Source of the DNA: Cyanidioschyzon merolae | Taxonomy: Eukaryota | Assembly (NCBI GenBank): GCA_000091205.1 | Contig: AP006498.2 | DNA length: 64,000 nt | Direction: 5' to 3' (one strand) | Shown: positions 2,466 through 28,156 of the stretch, piece by piece | Numbering within the stretch: position 1 is the first letter of the stretch | Layout: the number at the start of each line of letters is the position of its first letter | Program-made: the position numbers and the translations under genes | The notes under the pieces: model-generated | The model's database searches: none | What the model saw: the letters and a program-made list of their open reading frames with translations, nothing else | Told to the model about the DNA's origin: nothing

Positions 2466-2650
2466 GCTCGAGCTGGCGGTTCCGAGCGATGCACCTCTTC
2501 GATAAGAGGCAGCGTAGGCTTGCTCAGACTCTGTTTGCGCCTTACCCTCAAGGAGCGTAGACTGGATTCGCTTGCCAGTGGTGCTTCCGAACTCTATGTA
2601 AATCGGAATTCAGAGTGCGGTGTCGGCCTAATTACCGCCTAAATGCATGA

Positions 2651-10149: not shown

Positions 10150-10997
10150 GTCAACCGTTTCAAGCGACGCGATGCGACTCGTGGTATCGATGATTCCTTC
10201 ATCGACGTCGTCGAGCGCTGGCGCTATATTCGTGGTGGCGGCGGCAGTGGCGGCGGCGGCTATTCGTCAACTGCCGTACGGCGTTACCGCCTCACAGGCG
10301 TGCCTCTCGAAGCTTGGACACAGAGGTAGCGGTGGTGTAGCGTGTGCGTCCGGGGAAACGGAAACGCTGACGCTTTGTGAACGCTGCTGCGGGATCGCAG
10401 TGACTGGGAGGGAGCACACGCCTCCGAGTCAGAGCACGTGCACGGGGTTGGCTAGCATAGTGCTGTGGAAGGCTGCTCGAGGCTGACAGCAGTCACCTGG
10501 GTACGAGCTCGCTGAAGAGAGTCTGAGGCAAGGCGCTTGCGGGAGTGGTGCGCTCTTGGCACAGCGATTTCACAACTGGGAAGCGAGTGCGGTAACGTCG
10601 GTGCGCGTGTTGCTAGGGCGGGGTGATGGCTGATGAGGAGGTACGTGGACCTGCGTGCCTGTGCTCCTGCTGTTTGGCATTGTGAGTGGGCGTGAACGTC
10701 GTATTTCGAGTTGACGGCACCCGGAGGTTCGCTGGATCGAGTCAGTATTCGTTAGCGAAGCAGTGCTGCGGGGTGTTGGCGTGCGATCGTGTGCGTTGTA
10801 GCAATAGCGCCGTTGTGCTAGTGACTTGCCGCGTGCATGAACCAAGCGTCCCTTCCTTGGCGGAGTACTCGCATGGTGGCCTTGGAGCTCGGAAGCGTCC
10901 CCAGAAGCAATGAAGTCCATGCTCTAAAGACTGGCAGTGTGCGCGTCTCTGGTGGCTTTTGGACAGAAGCACCGAACCTGGTCTACGCGCGAGAGAA

Positions 10998-12250
10998 ATT
11001 AGAATGGAATACTGAACTGCATGCTCGATTCCTGCCTTGCGGATTCATTCCCGAACTTTTGTCATGTATACAGCTTCGATATCTGTAGTCCATGAAAGAG
11101 CTCTTTCGGATGCGAATGCGTCTTCGGACTCGCAATCGTCCATTTCGGAGTGACTCCATCGGCGCTGTGCTGCTCGAACTCAAAAAGTCACCGAAATCAA
11201 GACGATTCTCGACGCAGCAGAACGACGGTTCGTAAAATAACTGGTATCGTTATCCGACGCGCACGAACAAGCCTCCACTCTTGTCTGTTCCCTAGGTGTA
11301 GCATGCTCAGATCACGCAAGCTCCTAGTTTGCCGATCTTTCTGTTTTCAGGCAAATCGTAGAGACGGCAGTTGGCGCCGCAGGGATGGCGATCAGGAAAC
11401 TCAACGTTGTCACTTGACGGCTTGTTCACAAGATGGTGCCGAAAGCTCACTACACTTTTCATGTCTAATAATTGATTCCGTTCGAGCGACACATCCCGCT
11501 CTCTTCATGCCTATCGACGAGACTGAACTCGACAGCAGCCGCAGCAGCCGCAGCATGCTTCTGACGAGGTATGATCCCAGAGGCGTTCGTGTCTTCTGCT
11601 TCCATGGAAAAGCTTCTTGGACTCGGACGTCGATCATCGCAGCGACCGCTTCCATTTGCGAGCGGATCACCGGTTTGCACGAAGGGAGCGTAGACGGATC
11701 GAAATAGCTCGACTTGTCCCCGAGCCCGTATTTTCCTTCCGGTACTTGTTTCACCTTGGACAACACCGCGTTCCCCAAATCGTCTAAAGAATGGAGCAGC
11801 ATGCGCTTGTGCGTGCAAGGGACGGAGCACTCGCCGGCGTATTGTCCAGAACGGGCCCGTGATCGTTGGGTACGGCACCGGGTACGGAAACGGAGTAGCG
11901 CATGCTGGGCGATGCTTCTCCACTCGGAAAGGGCTTGTGCCAAGCGAGGCATTGTTCATTTATGCGCCAGGGGGCAGCGATCAGAGGAGGCATTGCGGGC
12001 GTATTGGAACACCTGGCCACAGCCAAGCGTCACCGCTGCGAATGGCGCACCCATTCTGTCTACGAAGACGGTGGAACTGGCAAGCGAAGCGCAGGTCGCA
12101 GCTTGAACCTGTTCGTCAAGTGCGCCAACAAGTACCGGAAGCGGGTGCATTGGGACGTCAAATCTGCCATCAACATCCTTCGGCAGCTGATAACGGAGCT
12201 GGAGCGACACGAGAGACCGGCATATTTCAAGCCGGATGCGCCATAGAGGA
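10998..12250 (+). mobile_element. Family-A TnpB/Fanzor-like element, copy A2 (degenerate), forming the outer end of the left palindrome arm
   Basis: It starts with the terminal motif 'ATTAGAATGGAATACTGAACTG'. The C-terminal peptide '...GKRSAGRSLNLFVKCANKYRKRVHWDVKSAINILRQLITELE' matches the TnpB zinc-finger plus RuvC-III pattern (FxCxxC..H.D.NAAINI). The reading frame is broken upstream, switching between frames 0, 1 and 2. Confidence 0.55.
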
Positions 12251-12637
12251 ACAAAGAGCAGTCGTAGATACCGCGGGCAAAGGCTGGTGTCGTAGGTGAG
12301 AACTGGATGAGACCCAGTATAATGATTACATATGCCCGAGTTTGTTAAGTGGAACGTTTCAATTTATTCTGAAATGGACGTAGGGCATCGATGTCCTTCA
12401 TCAAGCACCTTGTGCAGCACAGAAAATGAACCAGAATTGTTCGCTTGTGTGTCGAGGCGGCAAACTCCTCCGCACAATATCCCCGGCCGAAATGCTCTCA
12501 CACGGGCTCAGAGACATCTCTCTGGCATTGACATCCGATGCTCCAGGCTAGCTCGTACTAGGTGGCGCACTCTTCTAATACGAGACAGCAGACATGCACG
12601 TGTGTTGCACCGAGCGACAACGCGCCGGCGACGTCCT

Positions 12638-14014
12638 TCAGTAGCCCAGGTACCTCACTGGGGGTTTCTTCTTCCGACGTGTGCCGTCTGCGAAGCCGTC
12701 CCGACGATCATCGGTTTCATCGCTATCACCGCGTAGGTCGTGCACAAACCCCCGGAGGCTGGCCATCACTTTGTGGGCTTGGCGTCGCAGTTCAGCAGCG
12801 CGAAGCTGCTCGAATGCATCGTAGGTTCGCGAGCCGCTCGTTCCGACATCCCGCGGTCTACGCCGCAAGTGCTGAAACTTTTGCCATCCAGGAACCGCCT
12901 CATACCGGTGATCGCGCATAATTGGAAAGCAGTTGAAACCCTCCTCGCCGGGAAGTGGCTCCTCCGCAATAGACTCAATGGTGGGCAGTTTGATGCAGTG
13001 GTCATCCACCATCGTGGCAAAATCTACGCGTTGACTCGACAAATAATCGTCAAAGTCCAGGCTGTCAGGCGCAATGCGAAATACATTGGCAAGCTCGTCT
13101 GCGACATGCAGCCAGCCAATGTAGATGAGAAAAACAGAAAGCACGTAAATAATGTCCAGCCAGCGATAGTTTCCAATATCGATGCTGCTGGACGTTGCGC
13201 TCAATAAATTCAGATTTCCCGCGAGCAGTATGACACAAATCACGTAGATGCGCACTGTTGCGTTCACGAGCTGGCGGTACATCAGCGGAACTGGAACCCA
13301 CATGGGCACATATAAATAACCGAAATATCCGCGCACGAGCGCAAGCTGCTGCACAAGCTGAAGATGAACGAATTCCGTGATGCCGTAGCGGTGGTTCTGA
13401 TCACGCAGGCGAGAAAGCAAGTGCCCAGCCCACATGACTGGCATCGTCCACTGGGCTCTGTCTACATCATTCTCCAGCCGGTATCGCTCCTCAGGTGTGA
13501 TCAAGCCAATACGTTCCATGGCCTCAGTGGTGCGGTACGCATGATCACCGCCAAGAAAAACATCGCGAAGCACCATAGCGAACGGAATGCAGATCCACCG
13601 GACAATGAGTTGCTTCAACCGTGCAGCGCCGATAGGGTCGTTATCATCATACACGAAGGACGTCATCTCGAGAGCAATATTGTAGGCAGCGATTTGGCCA
13701 GTGCCACACATGACAACACGAACACTCCACCAACGGGAATAGATTGTGCTAGTATAAAACCCCAGCATAAAGGTAAGAATTGGCGAAAGGACACTGACAA
13801 GTGCTGCGAGAGTATTCAGGAAGGGTATCGGCCATTCTGCAACGTAGAGCTTGAGCGCTATCACGAGCACTGCGGCACCGATCCAGGAAAGAAGTTCAAA
13901 GAGCAACCGCTGGACCAATGAGCCGTACCAATGAAAGAAGACTCTAGTCCATGAAAGGGGAAATACATAGTCTTTCCCGAACGTGGCTATGGGATCCTTG
14001 TAGTAGATTGTCAT
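12638..14014 (-). CDS. Bestrophin-family (RFP-TM) anion channel, copy 1 (identical to copy 2)
   Basis: 'ILTFMLGFYTSTIYSRWW', 'PVPLMYRQLV' and 'YIGWLHVADELANVFRIAPDSLDFD' align with the bestrophin TM2 (VLGFYV..RWW) and C-terminal ([23 protein letters not shown]) signatures. It is predicted to have several TM helices. Confidence 0.85.
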   Translation of the reverse strand: MTIYYKDPIATFGKDYVFPLSWTRVFFHWYGSLVQRLLFELLSWIGAAVLVIALKLYVAEWPIPFLNTLAALVSVLSPILTFMLGFYTSTIYSRWWSVRVVMCGTGQIAAYNIALEMTSFVYDDNDPIGAARLKQLIVRWICIPFAMVLRDVFLGGDHAYRTTEAMERIGLITPEERYRLENDVDRAQWTMPVMWAGHLLSRLRDQNHRYGITEFVHLQLVQQLALVRGYFGYLYVPMWVPVPLMYRQLVNATVRIYVICVILLAGNLNLLSATSSSIDIGNYRWLDIIYVLSVFLIYIGWLHVADELANVFRIAPDSLDFDDYLSSQRVDFATMVDDHCIKLPTIESIAEEPLPGEEGFNCFPIMRDHRYEAVPGWQKFQHLRRRPRDVGTSGSRTYDAFEQLRAAELRRQAHKVMASLRGFVHDLRGDSDETDDRRDGFADGTRRKKKPPVRYLGY

Positions 14015-14476
14015 CTCTGGGAAACAAACGTGCCGCGTACCAGGTAAAGGCGTCGCTGGCCTGTGGAAACCTCTTCGGGCTCTTCAAATACGCACAAACA
14101 CCGCTTGGGTGCTTGCGCAACTCTGATTTGTGCTTTGGTCGTCGAACGGGGACTCGCTCGCTCTTGAACAGCAGCCGCACTCGAGCCGTGTGCACGTTTC
14201 CAACCTACGAAAACGCGAACTCCCGCTTCCAGCAGGTATCCTGATCTTGTTGCCTCTACGGTCAGGACGCGCAGTAAGCCTGGTTCACGTACGTACCGAC
14301 TATTTACCGGTGATAGTCGTCCGATCGCAGTGAGACCTACGGCGTCCCGTGTGTTTCGCAATCTGTCTGCAATAGCCGTTAGACAACCTGTTTATGGTTG
14401 CTTTGTGGCTCTGTGGCAAACACACACGCCGACACCGAACACTTTCCAAAAGTCGAACGACGCCAGCGCTGTACAG

Positions 14477-15033
14477 TACTGGCGAGAAGCCCGCCCTAGA
14501 CAAGAAGTCTCCAGCTGACGTACGGACGCCTCCCAGTCTTCATGGACCGGGCACCTACTACTGCTTCCAATTGTTTCTCATATAGTTCCACTTTGGGAGG
14601 TTGCCCCCACAAAATTCTCTCTTGTCAGCGCTGGAGGTCTGCTTTCCAGCACCGCACATCTCCTGATATTGATGGCGGCATTAAAGTCTCGGTTCACAAA
14701 CTCCATACGTTTCTTGCCATCACTGGTTGTACTCACTAGTGCGAGTAGCCCTCGAACTTTCGCCCTTGTTTCCATTTGCTCCTCCGTCAGCGGTCCGTAC
14801 TTTTCTATGTCTTCAGGGCTCCGCTGGCACTTTTCCATCCCGACCCTCTTAAGTACGCACCCCAGTTCATGGTGTGTATAGGACGTTCGGAACCCATCTA
14901 TCGGTATCGTAACAAAACGCTGTGCGCACTCCCTGTATGTTCTTGTCGACGGAGCTGGTACACATTCTTTTTGGGTCTTCCATCGCCCTGCTCCGTATGC
15001 CACTACGAGCCTCTGACGCTCGTCCTCCTTCAT
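14477..15033 (-). pseudogene. Partial inverted copy of the 3' half of the central TnpB/Fanzor-like gene, including its conserved 3' tail
   Basis: The 181-aa ORF 14578..15123(-) shares '...KEDERQRLVVAYGAGRWK...EFVNRDFNAAINIRRCAVLESRP...SQSGTI' exactly with the 233-aa ORF at 15272..15973(+). The copy stops at the arm boundary. Confidence 0.7.
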
Positions 15034-15099
15034 AATCCATTTCCGTCTTCGATATTGTACGTGACGAAGCATGAAGATGAGAAGGAGGCGGGTCCTGCG

Positions 15100-16080
15100 A
15101 CGCAGAAAGTGCATGAGAACCACTTTGTCGTTGGCGCGGGCCCTGGGAACACGAATATCATGACCATCACAACACGCCGTTGTGGGGATGATGGCGTCGA
15201 CGGCAACTTACGTCAAAAAACACACGCGTGTTTTAAAGCGCTAAAGAACGAGATATTACCGAGAGTTCGGTGTGATGAATGCAAAGAAGAAAAGTGGAAC
15301 GTGGAGTGCTGGAGTGAAAAAGCACCTGGAAGCGATCAGCCAGGTGACGAGCCGAGAAGCGGACTTTAAAGCTTTTCGGAAATTCATGGAAGTTCGTGTT
15401 GCTCACTGGGATGCGCTGTGGGAGGGGCATACAAAGCCCCGGTGGGCTCGTCTGCGAATGAATCTATACTGTGGCAAGCAGCGCGCATTCGCGAACTTTT
15501 TCAACCAGCTGAGCGCCGTGAAGGAGGACGAGCGTCAGAGGCTCGTAGTGGCATACGGAGCAGGGCGATGGAAGACCCAAAAAGAATGTGTACCAGCTCC
15601 GTCGACAAGAACATACAGGGAGTGCGCACAGCGTTTTGTTACGATACCGATAGATGGGTTCCGAACGTCCTATACACACCATGAACTGGGGTGCGTACTT
15701 AAGAGGGTCGGGATGGAAAAGTGCCAGCGGAGCCCTGAAGACATAGAAAAGTACGGACCGCTGACGGAGGAGCAAATGGAAACAAGGGCGAAAGTTCGAG
15801 GGCTACTCGCACTAGTGAGTACAACCAGTGATGGCAAGAAACGTATGGAGTTTGTGAACCGAGACTTTAATGCCGCCATCAATATCAGGAGATGTGCGGT
15901 GCTGGAAAGCAGACCTCCAGCGCTGACAAGAGAGAATTTTGTGGGGGCAACCTCCCAAAGTGGAACTATATGAGAAACAATTGGAAGCAGTAGTAGGTGC
16001 CCGGTCCATGAAGACTGGGAGGCGTCCGTACGTCAGCTGGAGACTTCTTGTCTAGGGCGGGCTTCTCGCCAGTACTGTAC
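15100..16080 (+). pseudogene. TnpB/Fanzor-like RuvC nuclease pseudogene (family B, long copy) at the palindrome centre: RuvC-I-like block, bridge, RuvC-II-like, degenerate zinc finger, RuvC-III, plus a conserved 3' non-coding tail
   Basis: In the frame of ORF 14776..15369 the sequence 'HFVVGAGPGNTNIMTIT' corresponds to TnpB RuvC-I 'aGvDvGikdfaivT' with Asp replaced by Gly. After a frameshift, the 15272 frame reads 'KKKSG..SREADFKAFRKF' (compare TnpB 'RRKKGS...NKRQDFLHKL'). 'VAHWDALWEGH' sits at the RuvC-II position with E replaced by D. 'IPIDGFRTSYTHHELGC' is a degenerate 'TSxxCxxCG' motif. 'EFVNRDFNAAINIRR' is an intact RuvC-III. Confidence 0.6.
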
Positions 16081-16536
16081 AGCGCTGGCGTCGTTCGACT
16101 TTTGGAAAGTGTTCGGTGTCGGCGTGTGTGTTTGCCACAGAGCCACAAAGCAACCATAAACAGGTTGTCTAACGGCTATTGCAGACAGATTGCGAAACAC
16201 ACGGGACGCCGTAGGTCTCACTGCGATCGGACGACTATCACCGGTAAATAGTCGGTACGTACGTGAACCAGGCTTACTGCGCGTCCTGACCGTAGAGGCA
16301 ACAAGATCAGGATACCTGCTGGAAGCGGGAGTTCGCGTTTTCGTAGGTTGGAAACGTGCACACGGCTCGAGTGCGGCTGCTGTTCAAGAGCGAGCGAGTC
16401 CCCGTTCGACGACCAAAGCACAAATCAGAGTTGCGCAAGCACCCAAGCGGTGTTTGTGCGTATTTGAAGAGCCCGAAGAGGTTTCCACAGGCCAGCGACG
16501 CCTTTACCTGGTACGCGGCACGTTTGTTTCCCAGAG

Positions 16537-17913
16537 ATGACAATCTACTACAAGGATCCCATAGCCACGTTCGGGAAAGACTATGTATTTCCCCTTTCAT
16601 GGACTAGAGTCTTCTTTCATTGGTACGGCTCATTGGTCCAGCGGTTGCTCTTTGAACTTCTTTCCTGGATCGGTGCCGCAGTGCTCGTGATAGCGCTCAA
16701 GCTCTACGTTGCAGAATGGCCGATACCCTTCCTGAATACTCTCGCAGCACTTGTCAGTGTCCTTTCGCCAATTCTTACCTTTATGCTGGGGTTTTATACT
16801 AGCACAATCTATTCCCGTTGGTGGAGTGTTCGTGTTGTCATGTGTGGCACTGGCCAAATCGCTGCCTACAATATTGCTCTCGAGATGACGTCCTTCGTGT
16901 ATGATGATAACGACCCTATCGGCGCTGCACGGTTGAAGCAACTCATTGTCCGGTGGATCTGCATTCCGTTCGCTATGGTGCTTCGCGATGTTTTTCTTGG
17001 CGGTGATCATGCGTACCGCACCACTGAGGCCATGGAACGTATTGGCTTGATCACACCTGAGGAGCGATACCGGCTGGAGAATGATGTAGACAGAGCCCAG
17101 TGGACGATGCCAGTCATGTGGGCTGGGCACTTGCTTTCTCGCCTGCGTGATCAGAACCACCGCTACGGCATCACGGAATTCGTTCATCTTCAGCTTGTGC
17201 AGCAGCTTGCGCTCGTGCGCGGATATTTCGGTTATTTATATGTGCCCATGTGGGTTCCAGTTCCGCTGATGTACCGCCAGCTCGTGAACGCAACAGTGCG
17301 CATCTACGTGATTTGTGTCATACTGCTCGCGGGAAATCTGAATTTATTGAGCGCAACGTCCAGCAGCATCGATATTGGAAACTATCGCTGGCTGGACATT
17401 ATTTACGTGCTTTCTGTTTTTCTCATCTACATTGGCTGGCTGCATGTCGCAGACGAGCTTGCCAATGTATTTCGCATTGCGCCTGACAGCCTGGACTTTG
17501 ACGATTATTTGTCGAGTCAACGCGTAGATTTTGCCACGATGGTGGATGACCACTGCATCAAACTGCCCACCATTGAGTCTATTGCGGAGGAGCCACTTCC
17601 CGGCGAGGAGGGTTTCAACTGCTTTCCAATTATGCGCGATCACCGGTATGAGGCGGTTCCTGGATGGCAAAAGTTTCAGCACTTGCGGCGTAGACCGCGG
17701 GATGTCGGAACGAGCGGCTCGCGAACCTACGATGCATTCGAGCAGCTTCGCGCTGCTGAACTGCGACGCCAAGCCCACAAAGTGATGGCCAGCCTCCGGG
17801 GGTTTGTGCACGACCTACGCGGTGATAGCGATGAAACCGATGATCGTCGGGACGGCTTCGCAGACGGCACACGTCGGAAGAAGAAACCCCCAGTGAGGTA
17901 CCTGGGCTACTGA
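16537..17913 (+). CDS. Bestrophin-family anion channel, copy 2 (identical to copy 1)
   Basis: 458 aa, 100% identical to 12638..14014(-), with the same bestrophin motifs. Confidence 0.85.
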   Translation: MTIYYKDPIATFGKDYVFPLSWTRVFFHWYGSLVQRLLFELLSWIGAAVLVIALKLYVAEWPIPFLNTLAALVSVLSPILTFMLGFYTSTIYSRWWSVRVVMCGTGQIAAYNIALEMTSFVYDDNDPIGAARLKQLIVRWICIPFAMVLRDVFLGGDHAYRTTEAMERIGLITPEERYRLENDVDRAQWTMPVMWAGHLLSRLRDQNHRYGITEFVHLQLVQQLALVRGYFGYLYVPMWVPVPLMYRQLVNATVRIYVICVILLAGNLNLLSATSSSIDIGNYRWLDIIYVLSVFLIYIGWLHVADELANVFRIAPDSLDFDDYLSSQRVDFATMVDDHCIKLPTIESIAEEPLPGEEGFNCFPIMRDHRYEAVPGWQKFQHLRRRPRDVGTSGSRTYDAFEQLRAAELRRQAHKVMASLRGFVHDLRGDSDETDDRRDGFADGTRRKKKPPVRYLGY

Positions 17914-18306
17914 AGGACGTCGCCGGCGCGTTGTCGCTCGGTGCAACACACGTGCATGTCTGCTGTCTCGTATTAGAAGAGTGCGCCACCTAGTACGAGC
18001 TAGCCTGGAGCATCGGATGTCAATGCCAGAGAGATGTCTCTGAGCCCGTGTGAGAGCATTTCGGCCGGGGATATTGTGCGGAGGAGTTTGCCGCCTCGAC
18101 ACACAAGCGAACAATTCTGGTTCATTTTCTGTGCTGCACAAGGTGCTTGATGAAGGACATCGATGCCCTACGTCCATTTCAGAATAAATTGAAACGTTCC
18201 ACTTAACAAACTCGGGCATATGTAATCATTATACTGGGTCTCATCCAGTTCTCACCTACGACACCAGCCTTTGCCCGCGGTATCTACGACTGCTCTTTGT
18301 TCCTCT

Positions 18307-19559
18307 ATGGCGCATCCGGCTTGAAATATGCCGGTCTCTCGTGTCGCTCCAGCTCCGTTATCAGCTGCCGAAGGATGTTGATGGCAGATTTGACGTCCCA
18401 ATGCACCCGCTTCCGGTACTTGTTGGCGCACTTGACGAACAGGTTCAAGCTGCGACCTGCGCTTCGCTTGCCAGTTCCACCGTCTTCGTAGACAGAATGG
18501 GTGCGCCATTCGCAGCGGTGACGCTTGGCTGTGGCCAGGTGTTCCAATACGCCCGCAATGCCTCCTCTGATCGCTGCCCCCTGGCGCATAAATGAACAAT
18601 GCCTCGCTTGGCACAAGCCCTTTCCGAGTGGAGAAGCATCGCCCAGCATGCGCTACTCCGTTTCCGTACCCGGTGCCGTACCCAACGATCACGGGCCCGT
18701 TCTGGACAATACGCCGGCGAGTGCTCCGTCCCTTGCACGCACAAGCGCATGCTGCTCCATTCTTTAGACGATTTGGGGAACGCGGTGTTGTCCAAGGTGA
18801 AACAAGTACCGGAAGGAAAATACGGGCTCGGGGACAAGTCGAGCTATTTCGATCCGTCTACGCTCCCTTCGTGCAAACCGGTGATCCGCTCGCAAATGGA
18901 AGCGGTCGCTGCGATGATCGACGTCCGAGTCCAAGAAGCTTTTCCATGGAAGCAGAAGACACGAACGCCTCTGGGATCATACCTCGTCAGAAGCATGCTG
19001 CTGCTGCGGCTGCTGCGGCTGCTGTCGAGTTCAGTCTCGTCGATAGGCATGAAGAGAGCGGGATGTGTCGCTCGAACGGAATCAATTATTAGACATGAAA
19101 AGTGTAGTGAGCTTTCGGCACCATCTTGTGAACAAGCCGTCAAGTGACAACGTTGAGTTTCCTGATCGCCATCCCTGCGGCGCCAACTGCCGTCTCTACG
19201 ATTTGCCTGAAAACAGAAAGATCGGCAAACTAGGAGCTTGCGTGATCTGAGCATGCTACACCTAGGGAACAGACAAGAGTGGAGGCTTGTTCGTGCGCGT
19301 CGGATAACGATACCAGTTATTTTACGAACCGTCGTTCTGCTGCGTCGAGAATCGTCTTGATTTCGGTGACTTTTTGAGTTCGAGCAGCACAGCGCCGATG
19401 GAGTCACTCCGAAATGGACGATTGCGAGTCCGAAGACGCATTCGCATCCGAAAGAGCTCTTTCATGGACTACAGATATCGAAGCTGTATACATGACAAAA
19501 GTTCGGGAATGAATCCGCAAGGCAGGAATCGAGCATGCAGTTCAGTATTCCATTCTAAT
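18307..19559 (-). mobile_element. Family-A TnpB/Fanzor-like element, copy A2' (mirror of A2) at the outer end of the right arm
   Basis: Reverse-complement duplicate of 10998-12250. ORF 18305..18649(-) encodes the same '...FVKCANKYRKRVHWDVKSAINILRQL' peptide. Confidence 0.55.
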
Positions 19560-20372
19560 CTGATAGCCCCGTCGGCGACGAGGATCTCAGAGTCGGATTG
19601 CACCTGCACTGATTCCGGGGATCTTGGTGTGCATGATGGAAATCTTTGGAAAATGTTCTGCGAATGATGGAACACGGGAAGTGTTGGACGCTTCCACCGT
19701 GCGCCCAGCTCTTTCTGATGCCTCCGAAAATGGAATTTTCGGAGCGCTCTCGGACACTAGTCTTGTGTGCGGTGCTTTGCACTCGATGGACGCAAAGAGT
19801 ACCGAAGCGAATCCTCACGAAGTTACGGATTCGCGCTCATTCAAGCAATCCCGGAGACATACCATAGAGTTGACATCGACGTTGCGCTGCCTCGGACCTT
19901 ACCAGGGATTGGTCACAGCACAAACGTCGGCGTCGCTCATGCTGCAGCGCCGGCGCTCTAGGCTCACTGTGGGCCCCCCTATCAAGCACTTGGCCCCGGA
20001 GGATTGCACGAAGCGACGGTTATCTCCAAAGAAAAGCGCGCGTGGTTGTTGTTGGGGCTTGAAGATCTGTTGCCGCGGAATGGACGCTCTCTCTGATGCC
20101 GTCAACCCTCGCGCAGTCAAGGATTCCTTCGAGTGTGTAAACGAATCTACACACCCCTGTGGGAAATCGCTCGTGCGAGAGAAGATGTACTTTTAGGGAC
20201 AATAATGTATGTCTTGTACGTCCGTGCGCGTGGCCTCGACAGCAGCGCAGCACCTGCACCTTGCAGTCGTTTCGAGCGCGCAGCCAGTGCTTGTTGTAAA
20301 CGACCTAGTCTAGGGTTGCTGGGGCGGTCCTCGCGTCAGGCTGTCCGCCCGACACACCTTGCAATAGGCACC

Positions 20373-21815
20373 ATGCCGATTATGTACATGGATCCCGTGG
20401 CGAACCTGGGGAAGGACTACGTTCTTCCCCTTTCCTGGGTGCGCATATTTCTCTACTGGCACGGAAGCCTCTTGCAGCGCTTGCTGTTCGAAGTGTGCAT
20501 CCTGTTCGGTCTCGCTGCTTTTATTATTGCCATGAAGCTTTACGTTGCAGAGTGGCCACGCTTCCTTCTAGAAGTCTTTGCAAATATTGTCAACATTCTT
20601 TCAGGCGTGTTGACGCTCCTGCTGGGGTTCTATGCCAGCACCATCTACAGCCGCTGGTGGTACACGCGCACGAACATGTTCGGGACCGCGCAAGGTGGAG
20701 TGTACAACTGCGGTTTCATGTTGAACGCGCTCGTCTACGACGATGAGAATCCGGAACTTTGCGCCCGCTTTAAGCAGCGGTTTCTCCGTTGGATGAACCT
20801 CGCTTTCGGAATCATGCTCATGGACGTCACCTCTGGTGGATCGCATCTCTTCGAGTCCTTTGATAGCATGGAACGCATCGGTTTGGTGACCCCCGAGGAG
20901 CGCTATCGCCTGGAGCATGACGTGGAGCGTGTGCGCTTCACGCTGCCCATTATGTGGGCGGGTCATATGCTTACGCGCCTCCGGGATAATAATCACCAGT
21001 TTCACATTACGGATCGGGTACACATGCAGCTGTCGATCGAGTTGGCTTACTTGCGGCAGGGTCTCGGTGGATGCTATCTCATGAAGAACACACCGGTGCC
21101 GCTTCTCTATGTGCAGTTCGTGGAGGTTGCTGTCCGAATGTACGTTATTAGCATGATTCTGCTTGTAGGTGATTTGAACTTGCTGTCTGGAACCTTTCAA
21201 GAACGCGGCAACGATAGATGGGTCGATCTCGTCTACATCGCAGCGCTGTTTTTCATCTACGTCGGCTGGCTTCATGTAGCGGAGGAACTTGCAAACCCCT
21301 TCCGAATAGCCCCGGATGGACTCGATTTGGATGACCTTCTCTCCGGACAACGATGCGATGTGATGACCATGTCCGACTCGACGCGTCAACGTTTACCGAA
21401 ACCCGAGGTGATTCAGGAAGCGCCGCTTCCAGGAGAGCAGGGCTGGTATTTGCCGATTATAACCCGAGATCACAGCTACGAGCCTGTTCCCTACTGGTAC
21501 AGTTTTTGGTACAATCTCATCCGTCGCCGAAAGTGCAGCACCGCGCCTTCACCTCATTCCATTATTTGGGGATTCTATCCCGAGAAACAGCCGCTGCTTA
21601 CCGAGCCAGAAAAGAAACATGCAGCATCAAATCCATCGGCGTGGTCCAACGTAGTGCATGTACACCCGGGAGCTTCACAACATTGGAACGTGAGTCACCG
21701 CAACGACGGGCCAGCGCCCATGGCCTCACATTGCCCAAGCGGGCTGGTCAGTTCGGGTTTCGGCGGACTTGGTGTGGATAGCAGCAGTGCTGACGGCGGC
21801 GGCAGTGTATTATGA
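20373..21815 (+). CDS. Bestrophin-family anion channel, divergent paralog 3
   Basis: 'MPIMYMDPVANLGKDYVLPLSW', 'LLGFYASTIYSRWW' and 'YVGWLHVAEELANPFRIAPDGLDLDD' match the bestrophin motifs. The six-frame ORF starts at 20133, but homology to copies 1, 2 and 4 begins at the Met at 20373. It has a long Pro/Ser/Gly-rich C-terminal tail. Confidence 0.8.
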   Translation: MPIMYMDPVANLGKDYVLPLSWVRIFLYWHGSLLQRLLFEVCILFGLAAFIIAMKLYVAEWPRFLLEVFANIVNILSGVLTLLLGFYASTIYSRWWYTRTNMFGTAQGGVYNCGFMLNALVYDDENPELCARFKQRFLRWMNLAFGIMLMDVTSGGSHLFESFDSMERIGLVTPEERYRLEHDVERVRFTLPIMWAGHMLTRLRDNNHQFHITDRVHMQLSIELAYLRQGLGGCYLMKNTPVPLLYVQFVEVAVRMYVISMILLVGDLNLLSGTFQERGNDRWVDLVYIAALFFIYVGWLHVAEELANPFRIAPDGLDLDDLLSGQRCDVMTMSDSTRQRLPKPEVIQEAPLPGEQGWYLPIITRDHSYEPVPYWYSFWYNLIRRRKCSTAPSPHSIIWGFYPEKQPLLTEPEKKHAASNPSAWSNVVHVHPGASQHWNVSHRNDGPAPMASHCPSGLVSSGFGGLGVDSSSADGGGSVL

Positions 21816-22503
21816 ACATTGTCCGGAGCTTTGGCATGCTTCTAAAGATGGAAAGCAGCTGGACCGCGCAGGCGGGATGCATCTTCCTCGTGTTGAGCGC
21901 TTCGCGTGGAGGATTCCCAAAAGGAGAATTTTAGTGCTGCGCGAATAATATTCTGATGAAACGAGTTTGTGGATGCTGAGCGGCAAACATGTGCGCCATG
22001 CGCACCGACGATGACAATGACCAACGCTTTCAGAACGCCAAGTACGTGCCGAGTGACGTCATCTACCTAGCGAATGCCTGGCTTCTCAGAGCAGACAGCT
22101 GGCACACAGTAGCGAGGCGCCGAGGCTTCGCCGCATGCATCCGCCATGCCGCTGACGCTCCAAAGCCACCGATCTGACCCTGCCAGTGAAGATGCTGGTA
22201 CGATTTTATTGATTCATTTTGCCAGTCAATCTGTATGACATACGATCGTTTTCTTTCCGCAAAACGCGTAAAAGTTGTATACGCTTTTGACGTTACGTGG
22301 AACGAATCGGTGGGTGCATCTCGTGGCGATTCTGCTCAGTTGTCTTTGACTTTGTGACCTACGCTCGGCGCGATTCCAGCACTCTGGACAGGTACACCAC
22401 AAGCCTCGGTGAGATGCGGGCATCATTGCCATTAGAGGCGAATCTCTGTCGTCTGCGCTGGTTCGCCGAGGCTACGCTAGCAAGCCCTATCATTTGGTGC
22501 ATG

Positions 22504-23154
22504 TTATGAAGACTCCTTGGGTTCAAACTTCAAGGAGTAAGAGTTCATGCAGTAGCGAAGCCCGGTCGGCTTGGGACCATCAGGAAAAACGTGCCCCAGG
22601 TGCGCGTCGCAGACCGCACAAAGCACCTCCGTACGTATCATACCATGCGATAGATCCCGTCTCTCTTTGACAGCCTCTTTGCTCAGGGGAGCATAAAACG
22701 AGGGCCAGCCCGTGCCACTGTCGAACTTTGTTTCGCTGGAAAATAACGGCGTTCCACAGCAGACACACCGATATATCCCCGTGCGTTTTTCGTTCCAGTA
22801 CTCGCCGGTAAAAGGCCGCTCGGTGCCAGCTCGTCGCGCTACCTCGAACTGCATCGGCGTGAGACGTGCTTTCCAGTCTTCTTCAGTGAGAGCTCGCCAG
22901 TCTTTTACGTCCGCTGGGTTGCTCTGACTCATTTTCAGACGCGAGCTACCTTTCACAAGCTGGGTCAGCTGTCCACGCTGCAGAGACGCTCTCCAGAAAG
23001 CAACACCGAGGACGGTACGCTGCTGCTGCTGCTGCTGCTGCACGGTGTTGCCAGAGTACAGAACACGGCAACACTGCTTGCACTGGTACTGTAAACGTGC
23101 TTGCTGAACAAGTGGTGAAGTGAAAATACTAACGAACATCAAAACAGGTATCAC
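22504..23154 (-). CDS. msrB: Peptide methionine-(R)-sulfoxide reductase MsrB (SelR domain)
   Basis: 'RYCxNSxSLxF' C-terminal region, 'GTGWPSF' and '[10 protein letters not shown]' with two CxxC pairs (CVCCG, CAVCDAH). The N-terminal 74 aa carry a (CAG)n-encoded poly-Q run. An alternative start at Met75 (22932) would give a canonical ~143-aa MsrB. Confidence 0.85.
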
Positions 23155-23649
23155 TGCAACCGTCTAGCGAATCGTCTCCGAGAAACCAGAAATTAACAGT
23201 GATTTAAGAATCGGAGATGCAACGAAGAAAAGTTACGCAACAATATTCACTGTACACAGTTGTCCAGGATCGTCTACAGTGCATGTGCATGCACGCGGTT
23301 CCGAGATGACGCCTCGGCACGCAGCAATGCATGGCGTTTCGGGTTGCCTGAGTGGCGGCGCAATCAGCATCGCGGCAAGCGCCCGCGATAGGCGCAGTAT
23401 GCCGAGAACTCTTTGCCCGCAGACAAACAACTAATCTCTATGTCGAACGGAGGGACTGTTCTTGAGCTAGTGGAACGTTGAAGCGTCTGAAGTAATACGC
23501 AACTATGATGGAATTGAGCAGCATTGTGAAGTGCATTGGAGGTGTTCGTTCAAGTTTTCTTGTCATAGTTTTTCACCTAAATTGTGTTCCACTCCTCCGG
23601 TGCGTGTCATCAAATGCGTGTTCGCGGTTTATAGCGGATTCGTTCGAAG

Positions 23650-24150
23650 TAGGTTCATTTCCAAAAATAAAAATCTAAGGATCAGGTATCGACATGCAAG
23701 GCGGGGATCCAGGAGGACCCTCATCACTGGCTGCCTGAGTAAAAAACGAAACAAATCCTCTTCTCGCCGATCATCGAGCGAAGAAGAGCAAGTGACCAGG
23801 AAGAAAAAGGCGAAGAAGATGACGATGAGAGATCGGCGAGAAAATGTATTTGGTCAACGGAACGATGACGTCCCTTTGGTGGCAAAGAGGGCTCGCGTTC
23901 TGACAACTATTTTAAAGGTGAGCTCAACCAGAGGCAATAAACGCATAGAGTTCGTGAACCGAGACTTCAACGCCGCCATCAATATCATGAGATGCACGGT
24001 GCTGGAGACGAGACCCGAGGAGCTGAGGCGATCCAAGTTTGTGAGGCAGCCTCTCAGGCTCGTTCTGTGCATGAATAAACCTAAATCGATAGCAGGGTCG
24101 CGGTCGAACAGGGCAGGGACGCGTCTACGGGTGGGTATTCACGCACCCTG
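23650..24150 (+). mobile_element. Family-B short non-autonomous TnpB/Fanzor-derived repeat, copy B2
   Basis: It begins 'ccaaaaataaaaatctaaggat' like 1030. 23740-24140 aligns with 31610-31990 ('...tcatcgagcgaagaagagcaag...', '...cagcctctcaggctcg...'). It encodes 'KRIEFVNRDFNAAINIMRCTVLETRPEE' (RuvC-III) with no upstream RuvC-I or RuvC-II. Confidence 0.55.
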
Positions 24151-26272
24151 CTTGCTCGTGGGACTTTGTTTCTTTCATTGACGATAACAGTGACGATAAT
24201 CACGGACAGAATATCCACCTGTGTGCACTTTGTAAAGCTCCTGAAACCTAGGCCACAGTCGAGTAACGAAGCTCATTGTCTACCGTTCAGGGTAGATCAA
24301 GAGACAGACTTCGGGGTCGGCGTGGACCCGGGAGCTGCAGGATGTCACGCCCGATTTTTAACCTCTGAATGAGGAGGCCGGCGCCAAAGACCTACTCGGA
24401 AGGAAGCTGACCCTGTTCAAGCTTTCCAGGGCAGGGGATTATCGAGATTCGGGCATAACGTTCGCCAGCAGGGATACCAGCAAGTGGAACGACGGCGTCC
24501 GGGCCCGACTCTCGACGCTCTGGACACCGTATCGAGCAGACGGGGGCATGCTTTGCACGCTTGATTCATAGATCATATGAGCCTCAAAACGTCTCCTGCG
24601 GGCGGTCTTTGGCAGCAGTACACACGGGCGCGCGGGGTCGGAAACCGATTCGGTTGAACGGAGGCAGCCATCGTGTATGCGCCAACTTGTCAGATGTGTT
24701 CGAACGAGAAATGATCGACACGTCGCGCTGTTTCGCGGAAGCCTAAGGCGCTGGACGTGGTTTAACGCGCATGAATGCGCTCCTACTCTTCGACCAGAGC
24801 GTGCAACGAGTGCAGGAACCGATCCTCAACGATACCCCAGCCCTGAGTTCGGGACGGCGTGCACGCATCCCGAGCACAGGTGCATGCTGAAACTGGTAGC
24901 AAAGAAGAGACGGAAATAAAGTTGGATGCTCGAGCTGGTGTACGGTAAGCTGACTGTGTGTCAGATGGCGAGCGAGTCGCAAGTGCGACGCGTGCTACAA
25001 TCTGAGTCCACCGCCATCCATGAGAGAAAGCAACTTCTGCACCGATATCTCAAAGCCTTGAAAAGCGTACGGAAATGTCTCGTGCCTCCGAAGAGTTCGG
25101 TGGCTTTGTGTGGCGCGAGCTTTCGGGAATTATTTCGTATCCTATCCATGCATTGTGCTGAAACACAGAAGAGTATTTATAAAAAATCAGGGCCAGGAGC
25201 GAGGGGGCGGCCTTCGTTTCTCGCCCGGAGCAAGGCTCTGGTATGGTACGATTCAGCTACCGAACGACATTGGTGCACCGTACACATACATCGTCAATGA
25301 TTTTCCTCGGCAACTGATACACCATTATTTGAGACGACGAATATAGAACAGAGTCAAATTGATGGATCAAAGCAGGTGAGCGGGGGCATAGACCTTGCGT
25401 TTCCGCAGACGGATTCCGGATGATGCCGCTTGTGTGATTTTTTCGTTGACAAGTCGCCCGCAGGGGACACGAACCTCCAAGTTCCCACAGAGAGGACACT
25501 TTGAGGCCAGTGCTGGACCGCACGGCCTGCAAGACCTGTGTTCGCTCCATACCCCTGTAGTATCTCCTATGGACGTGCTTTCCACGACTTATTCTGTCCA
25601 AACGAGCGTTTGCCCACAAAGATCTGGTCCATCAAAGTTGAGTTCAAGGCACAAGCGCAAGTAAAGCCAATTTTGGGCCCTGTACAATATGCAGGTGGCC
25701 TTCACAGCATACGCTTCGTTCCTCGTTTACGACGCGGCGAACGAGTGCTTCCGCGGAGGCGACCACGCACACAACCCCTGAAACTGAGCAGCTACAAACT
25801 GCATTAGTGGACCTGGAAGACCTGTTTCTCCTGCTTTGTATTCGTCTCGTCATCGAGCCCAGCGTATTCAGTAAACTTCCGTGCAAGTCACGGTTTACGT
25901 GCAGGTTTTCTTCGTAGACTCCGCCTTGTCCTGGAGAGTTTACGCTCGATTACGAGCAGCCTCGTAGGTAAACTTCGAAACAATTCGCCATTTACGTGCA
26001 GATGCCTATCCAGATGCTGCGACGTCCTGCTGAAATCACTCTCGTAGACGTGCAGTTTCGTGCAGGCCGCCCCTAGTTCTGTTCGAACTCGCGCGTCCAG
26101 CAGCGAGCCTCGTTGCTGAGCGCTGCGCTCGGCACCGAATGCCTCTGCGGCTTGCACATGCTCGCTCAGAAGCGTTCGTGTTGCACTGGGGGGTTCATCG
26201 CAGCGTACGCCAAGTCACTGTGACCAGATCATAACGTTTCGGCTTCCGCTACGCGGCTTATACGGTGAGTTC

Positions 26273-28156
26273 GTGCGCCGGATGCAAGACTATGAAGCTC
26301 TGCGCGAGTTGCGCTGGTGCGGAGCGGAGCTACACCGCGTCGCCGGTGCCCAGCTGGTGTCTCAGAGCACTGCTCTCGAGCGCACCAGTACTCTTGTAAG
26401 AAGCCTGCTTGAAAAGAAGGACTTTATGGAGGAGAACTGGAAAGAGGTGCTGCATCTGCAATCACAGTGGTTCTGCTGTTTGCAGACCCTGGTGCAGCGC
26501 TCAGTACAAGCGGAAAAGCCAACGTCAAAGCCCAGCTGTGCGGTAGTCGGAGCGCTCGAAGCGTCACTGCAACGGATAGCGCCAGTGGTTGTTCGATTGG
26601 GCACGGAGCAGGATATGGCGCTCGTTTTCAGCATCGCAGGCGGTCTCTGTGCTTTAGAACTGCTGAGCTGGTCCCAGTGCTGGCACGTCCTCGTGCGTCA
26701 ACTTTTGGACAGCAGCATCGATGACGCAGCACGTTGGCAAACCGTCCTGGTGCAGGGGTGTGCCGCAGCGTTTTGCGACCTGCGTTTGCATACGCTCCAC
26801 GCAGTAGCGCACCTGCTACGTGAATCGAGTTCGGTATACTCGACGCCTGCACCCGGGGCTGCGCTTGACTTGGCGGCGCGTGCGGAGAATGCATGGCGGT
26901 TCGTTTTGAAGCCCATTGGGCGACTACTCACCAAGGATGTGGCAAAGCAGCACCAGCAGCTGCTCAGTGAGGTCTTGCGGCGAGTCACGACGCCATCGCA
27001 ACGCGGAGACCGGCAGCAGCGACTACTGAAAGCATCCCGAAAGGCATTCACGGATGCGATGCTGGCGCTGCTGTCGACCGGTGAACACGGAATCGATTTG
27101 TCTGCACCCGTCCTCCTCGATGTTTTCGGAGAGCTTGTAGACAACCTCCTGCCGAACCATTGTATCGCAGAGCCGCTCCGACTGGGTGACTTTCTCGCGG
27201 AGACTTTTCGCGAGGCGATTGCCGGTCGTTCTGTGTATGGGATCGCAGCACTGGAGCCGCTGCTGTTTCTCATGCGCCACGATGGCCTCGAGTACGAACA
27301 CATATATGAGCAAGTGTATTCCAAGCTGGACGTACACACGCTCCTGCGACTGAACGCATGTGAGTCGGCCACAAGGGGGCGAGTGCTGCGCGCTGTCACG
27401 CAGCTATTGACGTCTAGCCACCTTCCGCATGCACTCATCAGCGCCTATACGAAGCGCCTTGCCCGGATAGCGCTGCAGAGCTGGGATGCAACACTGACGC
27501 TGTGGGCGCTTCGCTTGACGCTCGAACTCGTGCATCGCCATACGAGTGCGCGTCTGCTGCTCGAGTCGTGGTTCAAGCGACAGCAACCCGACAGGGAGCC
27601 TGTCATCGAAAGCAGCTGCTCGGACTCGACACCACGTCGTCGGGATCAGAGCGAGGCCTCGTTTGAGGCATCAGGGACCGGTGTGGTGCGTTCGACTCCC
27701 ACGAAACGCCTTGCATATGGATTCGTGTTTTGGGAGCGATCCAGCGGTCAACGAGCCGGAGATGAGTGCGCTAGTTCGACGCCCGGGCTGACGAACGACC
27801 CGTTTTTGGCCGATGAGCCAGATCCGCGTCGCTCCAACGCCTCTGCGAGTTTCCTCTGGGAAGTGGGTATGCTCTCTGAGCACTTTGTTTCCAGTGTTCG
27901 ACAACTCGCCGCTTTGTTCGAGGACCCGGAAAAGGCGATCAGTCGGGCGGGTCCGCTGGACGCCTGGTGTGATGCCTCACTTCGGGACCTTATCGAGTTG
28001 GAGTTACGCCGCTCCCAACATTTGGTGCGGAACAAGCCGATCGCGTTTGAGGCACCCAGGGACGACGACATCGTCGGAGACTCTGGATCAAAGGTAGAAG
28101 CTCAATTTACAGCGCATGCTGCGAATGCAAAAGTCATATTTGGTGAATATTCATAG
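26273..28156 (+). CDS. Hypothetical protein (627 aa), leucine-rich alpha-helical; no family recognised by eye
   Basis: Long uninterrupted ORF with coding-like composition and GC3 bias, lying between bestrophin paralogs 3 and 4. Confidence 0.4.
   Translation: MRRMQDYEALRELRWCGAELHRVAGAQLVSQSTALERTSTLVRSLLEKKDFMEENWKEVLHLQSQWFCCLQTLVQRSVQAEKPTSKPSCAVVGALEASLQRIAPVVVRLGTEQDMALVFSIAGGLCALELLSWSQCWHVLVRQLLDSSIDDAARWQTVLVQGCAAAFCDLRLHTLHAVAHLLRESSSVYSTPAPGAALDLAARAENAWRFVLKPIGRLLTKDVAKQHQQLLSEVLRRVTTPSQRGDRQQRLLKASRKAFTDAMLALLSTGEHGIDLSAPVLLDVFGELVDNLLPNHCIAEPLRLGDFLAETFREAIAGRSVYGIAALEPLLFLMRHDGLEYEHIYEQVYSKLDVHTLLRLNACESATRGRVLRAVTQLLTSSHLPHALISAYTKRLARIALQSWDATLTLWALRLTLELVHRHTSARLLLESWFKRQQPDREPVIESSCSDSTPRRRDQSEASFEASGTGVVRSTPTKRLAYGFVFWERSSGQRAGDECASSTPGLTNDPFLADEPDPRRSNASASFLWEVGMLSEHFVSSVRQLAALFEDPEKAISRAGPLDAWCDASLRDLIELELRRSQHLVRNKPIAFEAPRDDDIVGDSGSKVEAQFTAHAANAKVIFGEYS

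Follow-up and report, generated by a model that had tools for sequence, protein, structure and literature searches.

A bestrophin-bearing palindrome with boundaries in transposon sequence in the nuclear genome of Cyanidioschyzon merolae

The nuclear DNA of Cyanidioschyzon merolae 10D contains an 8.6 kb palindrome that carries a bestrophin gene in each arm. Independent metagenome assemblies confirm that it is a real, natural feature of the nuclear genome, present in many wild strains. We consider it probable that this gene-bearing palindrome arose as an inverted duplication at transposon copies, underwent a later central deletion and is maintained by gene conversion. The type of structure is already known, and the organism is new for it; a literature search on C. 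merolae bestrophin, palindromes, inverted duplication and gene conversion found no description of the palindrome.

Architecture of the palindrome and its presence in wild strains

The window analyzed here is a stretch of 64,000 nucleotides of contig AP006498.2 (assembly GCA_000091205.1). Arm limits were set with a repeat finder and global alignment. The features, in window coordinates, are:

10998-15032, minus strand: left arm, 4035 nt, the derived, inverted copy, holding a family-A element, bestrophin-1 and the 3′ 570 nt of CMe-1A (F1)
10998-12380, plus strand: left copy of the family-A element, ~1.4 kb, degenerate, with left end ATTAGAATGGAA
11533-11555: (CAG)n/(CAGCAGCCG)n microsatellite of the left arm, 23 nt, the sole site of arm difference
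12638-14014, minus strand: left copy of bestrophin-1, 458 aa, PF01062, of the BAM81823.1/BAM81824.1 pair
14461-15030, minus strand: mirror copy of the CMe-1A 3′ end, consensus 2577-3145
15032-15036, no strand: central deletion junction, TTCA/TAA/TCCA in 10D
15033-15518, plus strand: spacer, 486 nt
15036-16090, plus strand: CMe-1A (Fanzor1) pseudogene fragment, consensus 2093-3145
15519-19559, plus strand: right arm, 4041 nt, the copy in ancestral orientation
16537-17913, plus strand: right copy of bestrophin-1, 458 aa, PF01062, of the same pair
18171-19559, minus strand: right copy of the family-A element, in the bestrophin-1/bestrophin-2 intergenic region
18996-19024: (CAG)n/(CAGCAGCCG)n microsatellite of the right arm, 29 nt, 6 nt longer than in the left arm

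The right arm thus reads CMe-1A 3′ part, bestrophin-1 and family-A (minus strand), with bestrophin-2 beyond it, as in Cyanidiococcus. Two inverted arms of near-100% identity enclose a unique spacer, in agreement with the original prediction of a palindrome with a unique center of ~490 bp. That prediction, made by eye, had put arm identity at ~99.9% with two 6-nt indels. Global alignment yields no mismatches and a single 6-nt indel, in the microsatellite; the near-identity therefore stands and the second indel does not, the earlier reader having probably counted one indel twice, once per strand. The length of this (CAG)n microsatellite is hypervariable between strains. Outside the arms, 10150-10997 and 19560-20400 are unrelated, with a local alignment score equal to the shuffle mean. 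Neither Rfam nor tRNA scanning of the window returned a match.

Both 458-aa bestrophin ORFs are intact (Pfam PF01062, E 8.5e-34) and identical, as had been proposed from the sequence. They are already on record in GenBank as the identical proteins BAM81823.1 and BAM81824.1. The full 5′ and 3′ flanks of each copy fall within its arm; in practical terms, one bestrophin gene would be present as two complete copies of identical sequence.

The comparison set consists of ~25 independent contigs from metagenomes that match the window at 98.8-99.5% identity; they are population consensus sequences with mosaic SNP patterns, so the ‘strain’ distances drawn from them are approximate. All cross palindrome junctions or stop exactly at arm boundaries. 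The left outer junction (10997/10998) is crossed by L005-L008, L010-L013, L018-L020 and L024, both left-arm junctions by L005 and L019, and the right outer junction (19559/19560) by L009. The end of the right arm, the whole spacer and the left arm are spanned by L028 and L030. Four contigs (L021, L026, L027 and L028, the last at 10998) stop exactly at the family-A terminus, and L001 begins exactly at 15519. All contigs that extend into flanking sequence map to this one locus, with the same two flanks.

Perfect identity of 4-kb arms is the expected product of a mis-join, and the original prediction had allowed for an assembly artefact; the assembler would then have duplicated a single-copy segment in inverted orientation. 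However, independent assemblies of other samples cross every junction, and the arm boundaries are precisely where assemblies from short reads break, as they would at a true two-copy repeat. The arms are, moreover, distinguished by the 6-nt indel, which indicates that they were assembled separately. These observations rule out an assembly artefact for practical purposes and reduce its probability to a negligible level.

The central Fanzor1 fragment and the inner boundary

CMe-1A is a Fanzor1-encoding C. merolae element with a 3169-bp consensus, ~150 copies and no terminal inverted repeats (Bao & Jurka 2013, PMC3627910). The central fragment is 85.7% identical to this consensus over 1055 nt, and its protein shares 66-78% identity with intact family members. 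The spacer corresponds to consensus ~2093-2576 of the right-hand element (F2), and its reading frame continues unbroken into the right arm; no record was found of the exact 10D sequence of the 232-aa ORF that spacer and right arm form. The invariant Asp of RuvC-I is replaced by Gly (VGAGPGNTN, in the spacer), as is the invariant Glu of RuvC-II (IDGFRTS), and RuvC-III (NRDFNAAINI) is intact. A 10D-specific +1 frameshift lies near 15215 in the spacer, and a premature stop at 15973. The right-hand element rebuilt from L020 and L022 measures ~3.17 kb, similar to the published element, in contrast to the copy at the palindrome center, which lacks the catalytic Asp and Glu, is frameshifted and has lost two thirds of its length. 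Since both catalytic residues are Gly, the frame is broken by the frameshift and in-frame stop, and only consensus 2093-3145 remains, the central fragment is a pseudogene and, judged from its sequence, a dead copy of CMe-1A, in line with the TnpB/Fanzor-like pseudogene originally proposed for the center. CMe-1 N-terminal coding sequence was not found to the left of the palindrome.

Pfam gave no match for the central ORFs or for intact CMe-1 relatives and only sub-threshold Cas12f1-like_TNB matches for distant ones, and a profile search of PDB sequences returned nothing relevant to CMe-1. Because these sequence searches were negative, confirmation as a Fanzor required fold comparison. The structure model of an intact relative, P0037 (mean pLDDT 78), has as its best PDB matches the Fanzor proteins SpuFz, PpFz and GtFz (E 1e-10 to 4e-6); Cas12 and TnpB come next. 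The CMe-1A family is accordingly modeled with the Fanzor/TnpB fold, a RuvC domain with inserted domains.

The inner arm boundary falls within the CMe-1A fragment, immediately 5′ of the ‘LVVAYGAG’ strand preceding RuvC-II, which is where the original prediction had placed it. The attribution of this boundary to a fold-back or transposon event did not hold, as wild contigs (L020-L022 and L025-L027) reveal a longer form. In this long form, the arms are roughly 5.1 kb and end inside two head-to-head CMe-1A copies. F1, a second, 5′-truncated CMe-1A copy, is contiguous with the arm over consensus 740-3145 in L020, L021 and L025-L027. The 5′ end of F2 lies 14 nt from F1, head-to-head, in L020 and L025, and in L022 the spacer sequence adjoins a 5′ region of F2 type. 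F1 and F2 are 99-100% identical outward from ~consensus 1535 and 63-89% identical further in; their N-terminal parts share 66% identity, no more than either shares with the rest of the family (57-73%). Removal of ~3.95 kb from the center of the long form gives the 10D form and that of several wild contigs; the long-form palindrome itself is deduced from short-form parsimony and contig break points, as both of its arms never occur in one contig.

A one-step fold-back (hairpin-primed) or template-switch duplication could in principle have made the present arms and 486-nt spacer directly, and the geometry fits: the duplication is inverted, the unique spacer is short, and the inner junction lacks long homology. 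However, the spacer runs into the rest of CMe-1A instead of the left arm in six contigs from six samples, and in long-form contigs the left arm, too, continues into the second CMe-1A. A simple deletion separates the 10D junction from the long form, and a one-step origin is quite improbable. Because the 10D form is the long form minus ~3.95 kb, its inner boundary is a secondary deletion junction rather than a fold-back scar. An ancient fold-back inside F2 (consensus ~740), with later decay of the inner part, could have been the very first event, although identity between F1 and F2 is only 63-77% at that position.

The central deletion was sealed by end joining with microhomology of ≤1 nt. Its junction reads TTCA/TAG/TCCAG in wild short-form contigs, and the undeleted element reads GGATCG/TCCAG. 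A 3-nt filler, ‘TAA’, was considered at this junction and rejected, as TAG in wild contigs and TCG in the undeleted element favor a direct join followed by point changes.

Probable gene conversion and a proposed origin of the duplication

The two 10D arms differ from each other at 0/3531 sites and from every other strain at 14-30 arm sites. Wherever strains with the same junctions vary, the two 10D arms agree, and five 10D-private substitutions (16674, 18005, 18655, 19122 and 19195) are found in both. The arms of 10D are thus closer to each other than to orthologous arms, the pattern of concerted evolution. With at least 18 arm differences expected, the Poisson probability of none is <2e-8.

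A very young duplication could leave 0 mismatches in 4 kb without any gene conversion, and a very recent event was one of two readings originally offered for the arm identity. However, the deletion junction and both outer junctions are common to 10D and to contigs with 14-30 arm differences from it, and contigs that share the junctions also differ from 10D within 8 nt of the deletion junction. The private substitutions, moreover, sit in both arms, and youth alone is a very unlikely explanation. From the absence of differences between the 10D arms, set against 14-30 between junction-sharing strains, we infer that the arms are continually homogenized by intrachromosomal arm-to-arm gene conversion, the second of the two readings. 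This homogenization would not be instantaneous, since the arm ends of L028 itself differ at 2/74 positions.

Inversion isomers of the spacer, which arm crossing-over would produce, were not seen; 10D, L005, L028, L029 and L030 share one orientation, in a small sample (n=5 short-form sequences) that rare isomers could escape. Such isomers are common in gene-bearing palindromes, and not obligatory.

A single-copy arrangement, which the original prediction had proposed seeking in related strains, is present in Cyanidiococcus, where the locus reads MDH(-), bestrophin-1(+), bestrophin-2(+), bestrophin-3(+). The right bestrophin-1 of C. merolae is the positional and orientation orthologue of the first of these three tandem bestrophins, and neither CMe-1A nor family-A was found in the searched sequence of the Cyanidiococcus locus. 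This arrangement is the ancestral form of the locus. The C. merolae lineage has a full CMe-1A (F2) on the upstream side of bestrophin-1 and family-A on its downstream side, and an inverted copy of the segment comprising the CMe-1A 3′ part, bestrophin-1 and family-A adjoins the MDH side. Insertions of CMe-1A and family-A and rearrangements of the bestrophin cluster fall together in this region, a local hotspot.

At both ends, the outer arm boundary coincides within 1 nt with the start of family-A homology, which supports the original placement at the terminus of this element. The start reads ATT[A/G][G/C]AATGGAA, with copies at 2654, 10998, 19559(-) and 53836, and is preceded by A at the left junction and by G in the other three copies. 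TnpB/Fanzor-like motifs (VIVGYGxG, EHLAT, CHRC and RDxxSAINIL) occur in shifted frames on the plus strand of the left copy. Family-A gave no Pfam match, no CMe-1 profile match and no similarity to CMe-1A DNA, and a protein search with its C-terminal translation matched only its own locus, with no intact relatives. At only about 65-70% identity, the other family-A copies of the window would make a poor recombination substrate.

We propose that the original duplication was anchored on pre-existing inverted transposon copies, with F1/F2 inside and, as the outer anchor, probably a second, pre-existing family-A copy. Break repair, through gap repair or break-induced replication, would have copied bestrophin-1 across, and ~3.95 kb at the center of the long form would later have been deleted to give the 10D form. 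Repair anchored in this way would explain why arm identity ends exactly at the transposon end. A duplication of family-A alone, combined with flips of the intervening segment, was also considered and rejected, as arm contigs pass the inner end of family-A and stop only at the outer one.

The precise position of both outer ends at the family-A terminus, and the location of both boundaries within transposon sequence, may also suggest a transposon-driven event, in which a composite mobile element captured bestrophin, as originally suggested, or a transposase or TnpB-type nuclease cut at this terminus. The two ends of such a unit are, however, unrelated (the family-A left end and the inside of CMe-1A), with no terminal inverted repeats and no target-site duplication evident on reading the junctions. 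Contigs with bestrophin-1 show no context other than this locus, and the gene is syntenic with Cyanidiococcus. The family-A copies are degenerate, no intact protein was found, and DNA folding of the left ends detected no conserved terminal hairpin, only a 9-bp hairpin in one copy. A transposon-driven origin is therefore unlikely. A more specific version, in which the family-A left end was cut by a nuclease or recombinase that the transposon encodes and repair of the break copied the host gene in inverted orientation, is distinctly unlikely; if true, the duplication of a host channel gene, since kept by gene conversion, would be the direct work of a Fanzor/TnpB-type element.

Relation to known systems and significance

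Primate sex-chromosome ampliconic palindromes, such as P1-P8 of the human Y, are maintained by arm-to-arm gene conversion (see also PMC6790999). The C. merolae palindrome shares with them near-identical inverted arms, a unique spacer, intact genes in both arms, and a greater similarity between the arms of one genome than between orthologous arms of different lineages. Structural polymorphism, with changes of the spacer and inner boundary through deletion, is a further likeness. In contrast to primate arms of 9 kb-1.45 Mb, those of C. merolae are 4-5 kb, 100-1000 times smaller. They belong to a unicellular alga with a transposon-poor genome of 16.5 Mb, in which they occupy an ordinary chromosome and have a single gene per arm and both boundaries in transposon sequence.

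In yeast and human copy-number variants, inverted duplications form through break repair at pre-existing inverted repeats, via break-induced replication or template switching, with one homology-mediated and one end-joined junction (see also PMC10622511, PMC10766186). Similarly, the long-form inner boundary in C. merolae lies inside two inverted, diverged copies of one transposon, and the other junction is sharp and non-homologous past the element end. However, the C. merolae product is a two-copy interstitial palindrome rather than a triplication or terminal fold-back, and is known from the product alone. As in plastid inverted repeats, two inverted copies appear to be kept identical by recombination-dependent copy correction, although this palindrome is nuclear and shows no spacer flip-flop in the five short-form sequences.

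This palindrome provides a small, fully sequence-resolved natural case of palindrome birth, remodeling by central deletion and maintenance by gene conversion, in the setting of a minimal, transposon-poor eukaryotic genome. The C. merolae genome is easily manipulated by homologous recombination. Wild populations contain both structural forms, which would allow direct measurement of conversion rates and of palindrome stability. Knockout or quantification of bestrophin-1 must handle two identical copies, and Cyanidioschyzon assemblies made from short reads will be interrupted at precisely these arm boundaries.

Architecture of the palindrome and its mobile elements

The window is nuclear DNA of Cyanidioschyzon merolae 10D, located on a 908,485-bp chromosome, and its genes are of the intron-poor nuclear type (inositol-phosphate synthase, PfkB kinase, malate dehydrogenase (MDH), CBF/Mak21, LeuRS, copper ATPase and CTP synthase). 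A repeat finder returned two abutting inverted pairs that together form one palindrome, whose arms were delimited by global alignment.

Features of the palindrome and related copies in the window
10998-15032, left arm, 4035 nt
15033-15518, spacer, 486 nt
15519-19559, right arm, 4041 nt
2654-~4040, + strand, family-A copy 1
10998-~12380, + strand, family-A copy 2
19559-~18171, - strand, family-A copy 3
53836-~55250, + strand, family-A copy 4
20133-21815, + strand, further bestrophin paralogue
28893-30302, - strand, further bestrophin paralogue

The arms had been predicted to be near-identical, with two indels. The near-identity holds, with 0 mismatches, and the alignment gives one indel, of 6 nt, in a (CAG)n/(CAGCAGCCG)n microsatellite (11533-11555 versus 18996-19024). 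Outside the arms, the two flanking sequences are unrelated to each other. The microsatellite is hypervariable across strains (contigs L005-L013), which differ in its length by 3 to ~30 nt and only by whole triplets; it sits in a 182-191-aa ORF antisense to family-A that gene callers predict in many contigs and for which a search found no family match. Each arm encodes a 458-aa protein with a bestrophin domain (Pfam PF01062, E 8.5e-34), and exact protein look-up equates the pair with two GenBank entries, BAM81823.1 and BAM81824.1, both annotated 'similar to bestrophin'.

Both outer arm ends coincide within 1 nt with the start of family-A homology, as had been proposed. The four window copies of this element are alike over about 1.4 kb (roughly 65-70% identity), from the sequence ATT[A/G][G/C]AATGGAA onwards, and are unrelated in sequence to the central element. 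Their plus strand carries TnpB-like motifs in shifted frames, and this resemblance makes a TnpB-like nature conceivable but unproven; none of the profile methods used supported it, and a search for an intact relative found none. A short direct motif recurs at both ends of all copies (ATTAGAATGGAA on the left, 10998-11009; ATTCTGAAATGGAC near the right, 12363-12379), and may represent terminal direct repeats. Just upstream of the first copy lies a tandem array of three 72-nt units (2220-2435; 82-100% identity). The left end of the fourth (53836-53850) overlaps the first codons of a thiamine-monophosphate synthase ORF (52861-53850, - strand; start codon 53848-53850).

The coding sequence across the spacer and the first part of the right arm gives the last ~310 residues of a protein with 228 close relatives in a first search and 1433 representatives in a profile search, many of 600-700 aa. 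This sequence belongs to CMe-1A, a family of ~150 copies without terminal inverted repeats, whose 3169-bp consensus was published together with a CMe-1 Fanzor1 protein (Bao & Jurka 2013, PMC3627910). Window positions 15036-16090 match consensus 2093-3145 at 85.7%, and left-arm positions 15030-14461 correspond to consensus 2577-3145. The AlphaFold model of an intact relative, P0037 (mean pLDDT 78), has solved Fanzor structures as its best matches (SpuFz 9cey/8gkh, E about 1e-10, then PpFz and GtFz), with Cas12 and TnpB following. The prediction of a TnpB/Fanzor-like pseudogene is borne out: the invariant RuvC-I Asp (VGAGPGNTN versus VGADPGNTN in relatives) and RuvC-II Glu (IDGFRTS versus VDEFRTS) are both Gly, and the copy is further disrupted by a frameshift close to 15215 and by a premature stop.

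Related sequences occur elsewhere in the window. A CMe-1A 3′ fragment (1042-1269; consensus 2737-2971) is directly followed at 1288-1926 by the 5′ 635 bp of the element (82% to consensus 3-634), a copy matching the short element TE-N2_CMe (Bao & Jurka, PMC3627910). Further along, a 928-nt direct repeat (42642-43569 and 50221-51148; 98.7% identity, 7.6 kb apart) holds in each copy a 190-aa ORF with no Pfam match; diverged Fanzor-like fragments (43785-44285 and 52020-52533) follow the copies within about 0.2-0.9 kb. This repeat could be either a segmental duplication or a younger family of transposons.

Two natural forms in wild strains

Exact-protein look-ups and a 23-mer of the left flank recovered about 25 contigs of independent origin, which match the window at 98.8-99.5% identity. 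One 66.8-kb contig (L005/L019) runs from the left flank through the entire left arm into 419 nt of spacer. The ENA contig L028 joins 74 nt of right arm to the whole spacer and whole left arm, and L030 links 70 nt of right arm, through the complete spacer, to a left arm that it covers as far as 12540. The right outer junction is spanned by L009, which runs on to CBF, and the left by L006-L008, L010-L013, L018, L020 and L024. Other contigs stop exactly at arm edges: L021, L026, L027 and L028 finish with the final base of the family-A terminus, and L001 starts at exactly 15519. Such stops are the expected behaviour of short-read assemblies at a true two-copy repeat. The palindrome is thus real, and the assembly artefact considered in the original prediction is excluded.

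These contigs fall into two forms. In the short form (10D, L005, L028, L029 and L030), all sequences have the junction arm...TTCA|TAG|TCCAG... in common, with a spacer of 485 nt; 10D has since acquired TAG to TAA, G to T at 15040 and one A near 15215. In the long form (L020, L021 and L025-L027), the arm runs without this junction into the remainder of CMe-1A, here the left, 5′-truncated copy F1 (consensus 740-3145), which has an open frame of 453 codons and the same Gly substitutions as the window copy. In L020 and L025, the 5′ end (consensus position 1) of the right copy, F2, follows in opposite orientation 14 nt beyond F1, and in L022 an F2-type 5′ region leads into a stretch that matches the spacer exactly. 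Combining L020 with L022 gives an F2 of about 3.17 kb, which fits the consensus. Outwards from a point about 558 nt upstream of window 15036, F1 and F2 agree at 99-100%; their identity drops to 84-89% in the adjoining 300 nt inwards and to 63-77% beyond. Their N-terminal protein parts are 66% identical, and each is 57-73% identical to other family members, so the two are no closer to each other.

We infer that the long form is itself palindromic: its arms measure about 5.1 kb, and its spacer, about 2.35 kb, consists of the diverged 5′ parts of two CMe-1A copies facing each other head-to-head. Each long-form contig holds at most one arm; the palindromic arrangement is favoured because no other structure would yield the short form in one step, and because arm contigs from long-form samples pass unbroken through the family-A inner end and stop only at the outer end. 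There, two contigs of a single sample, L018 from the left flank and L027 from the arm, share a 121-nt overlap. Removing about 3.95 kb from the long form, from F1 consensus 2576 across the centre to F2 consensus 2092, gives the short form, which must be the derived state because in the long form each CMe-1A copy follows the family consensus without interruption. Microhomology at the deletion junction is at most 1 nt (A), and the junction looks like simple end joining.

Three independent long-form contigs (L021, L026 and L027) begin at the same base in F1 (L020 6445, about consensus 983), implying a further assembly-graph branch there. The F2 5′ region at the long-form centre differs by 4.2% between two samples (L022 1-517 versus L020 7160-7677), compared with 0.3-1% in arms and flanks, reflecting either faster evolution or escape from cross-strain homogenisation, or an L022 partly built from another CMe-1A copy.

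Concerted evolution of the arms

The 10D arms have 0 differing sites in a 3531-nt arm core, whereas 10D differs from every other contig at 14-30 sites (proportionally fewer over shorter overlaps), the metagenome contigs being consensus sequences. The differing contigs include short-form ones that share the deletion junction by descent, and changes 3 and 8 nt from the junction place divergence close to it as well. A very recent event, one of two reasons originally offered for the arm identity, is therefore insufficient by itself. The other, gene conversion, accounts for these observations. Five 10D-private substitutions (16674, 18005, 18655, 19122 and 19195) are present in both arms, and independent arm evolution since 10D and L005 diverged predicts at least 18 differences, with a Poisson probability of none below 2e-8. 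This discrepancy argues that the arms have been homogenised by arm-to-arm gene conversion. Where the two arms of L028 can be compared, they show 2 differences in 74 nt, a hint that arms may now and then be heterogeneous.

SNP patterns among strains are mosaic (arm core 16100-18400, 16 sequences), with all four allele combinations at 17385/17502. Short-form strains do not cluster, and the closest to 10D is the long-form L020. These patterns suggest either that lineages of this alga, supposed to be clonal, have recombined, or that some metagenome contigs are chimeric consensus sequences.

Origin and significance of the duplication

At the syntenic locus of Cyanidiococcus yangmingshanensis (L004) and related metagenome contigs (L014-L017), the order is inositol-phosphate synthase(+), PfkB(+), MDH(-), bestrophin-1(+), bestrophin-2(+), bestrophin-3(+) and CBF(-), with bestrophin-2 starting 370 nt after bestrophin-1; the central element and family-A are both absent there. 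Because bestrophin-1 is single-copy in this locus and oriented as in the right arm, the right arm occupies the ancestral position, and the left arm is derived. The reading frame of the central gene, unbroken from the spacer into the right arm, agrees with this polarity. A bestrophin-3/CBF/SelR block is also inverted (window 22500-30300 versus L004 13660-19440), the order being SelR(-), CBF(+), bestrophin-3(-) in C. merolae and bestrophin-3(+), CBF(-), SelR(+) in Cyanidiococcus. This is a second rearrangement of the bestrophin gene cluster, and CMe-1A fragments lie within and beside the inverted block (23565-24056 and 31719-31970).

The long-form arms end on the inner side within two inverted CMe-1A copies that look like independent family members, and on the outer side exactly at the family-A end. 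The simplest reading is break repair anchored on inverted transposon copies. Repair of a break on the MDH side would have relied on homologous elements lying inverted on the bestrophin side and closed the gap by synthesis through bestrophin-1, and later conversion would have extended identity to the limits of homology. Such a homology-anchored origin needs a putative second family-A copy at the left flank, where the base preceding ATT is A, against G in the other three copies; none of the recovered contigs carries the left flank without the family-A junction. Alternatively, a template switch or end joining may have fallen by chance at the family-A end, or a transposon enzyme may have cleaved there.

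The duplicated bestrophin genes were already annotated and the CMe-1A family already published. Our search of the C. merolae literature for bestrophin, palindrome, inverted duplication and gene conversion turned up no account of the palindrome, of the two forms in which it occurs naturally, or of the concerted evolution of its arms. The palindrome behaves as plastid inverted repeats and the gene-bearing palindromes of mammalian sex chromosomes do, but is far smaller and belongs to a red alga. While it does not amount to a new mechanism, it is useful both as a model and as a practical warning.
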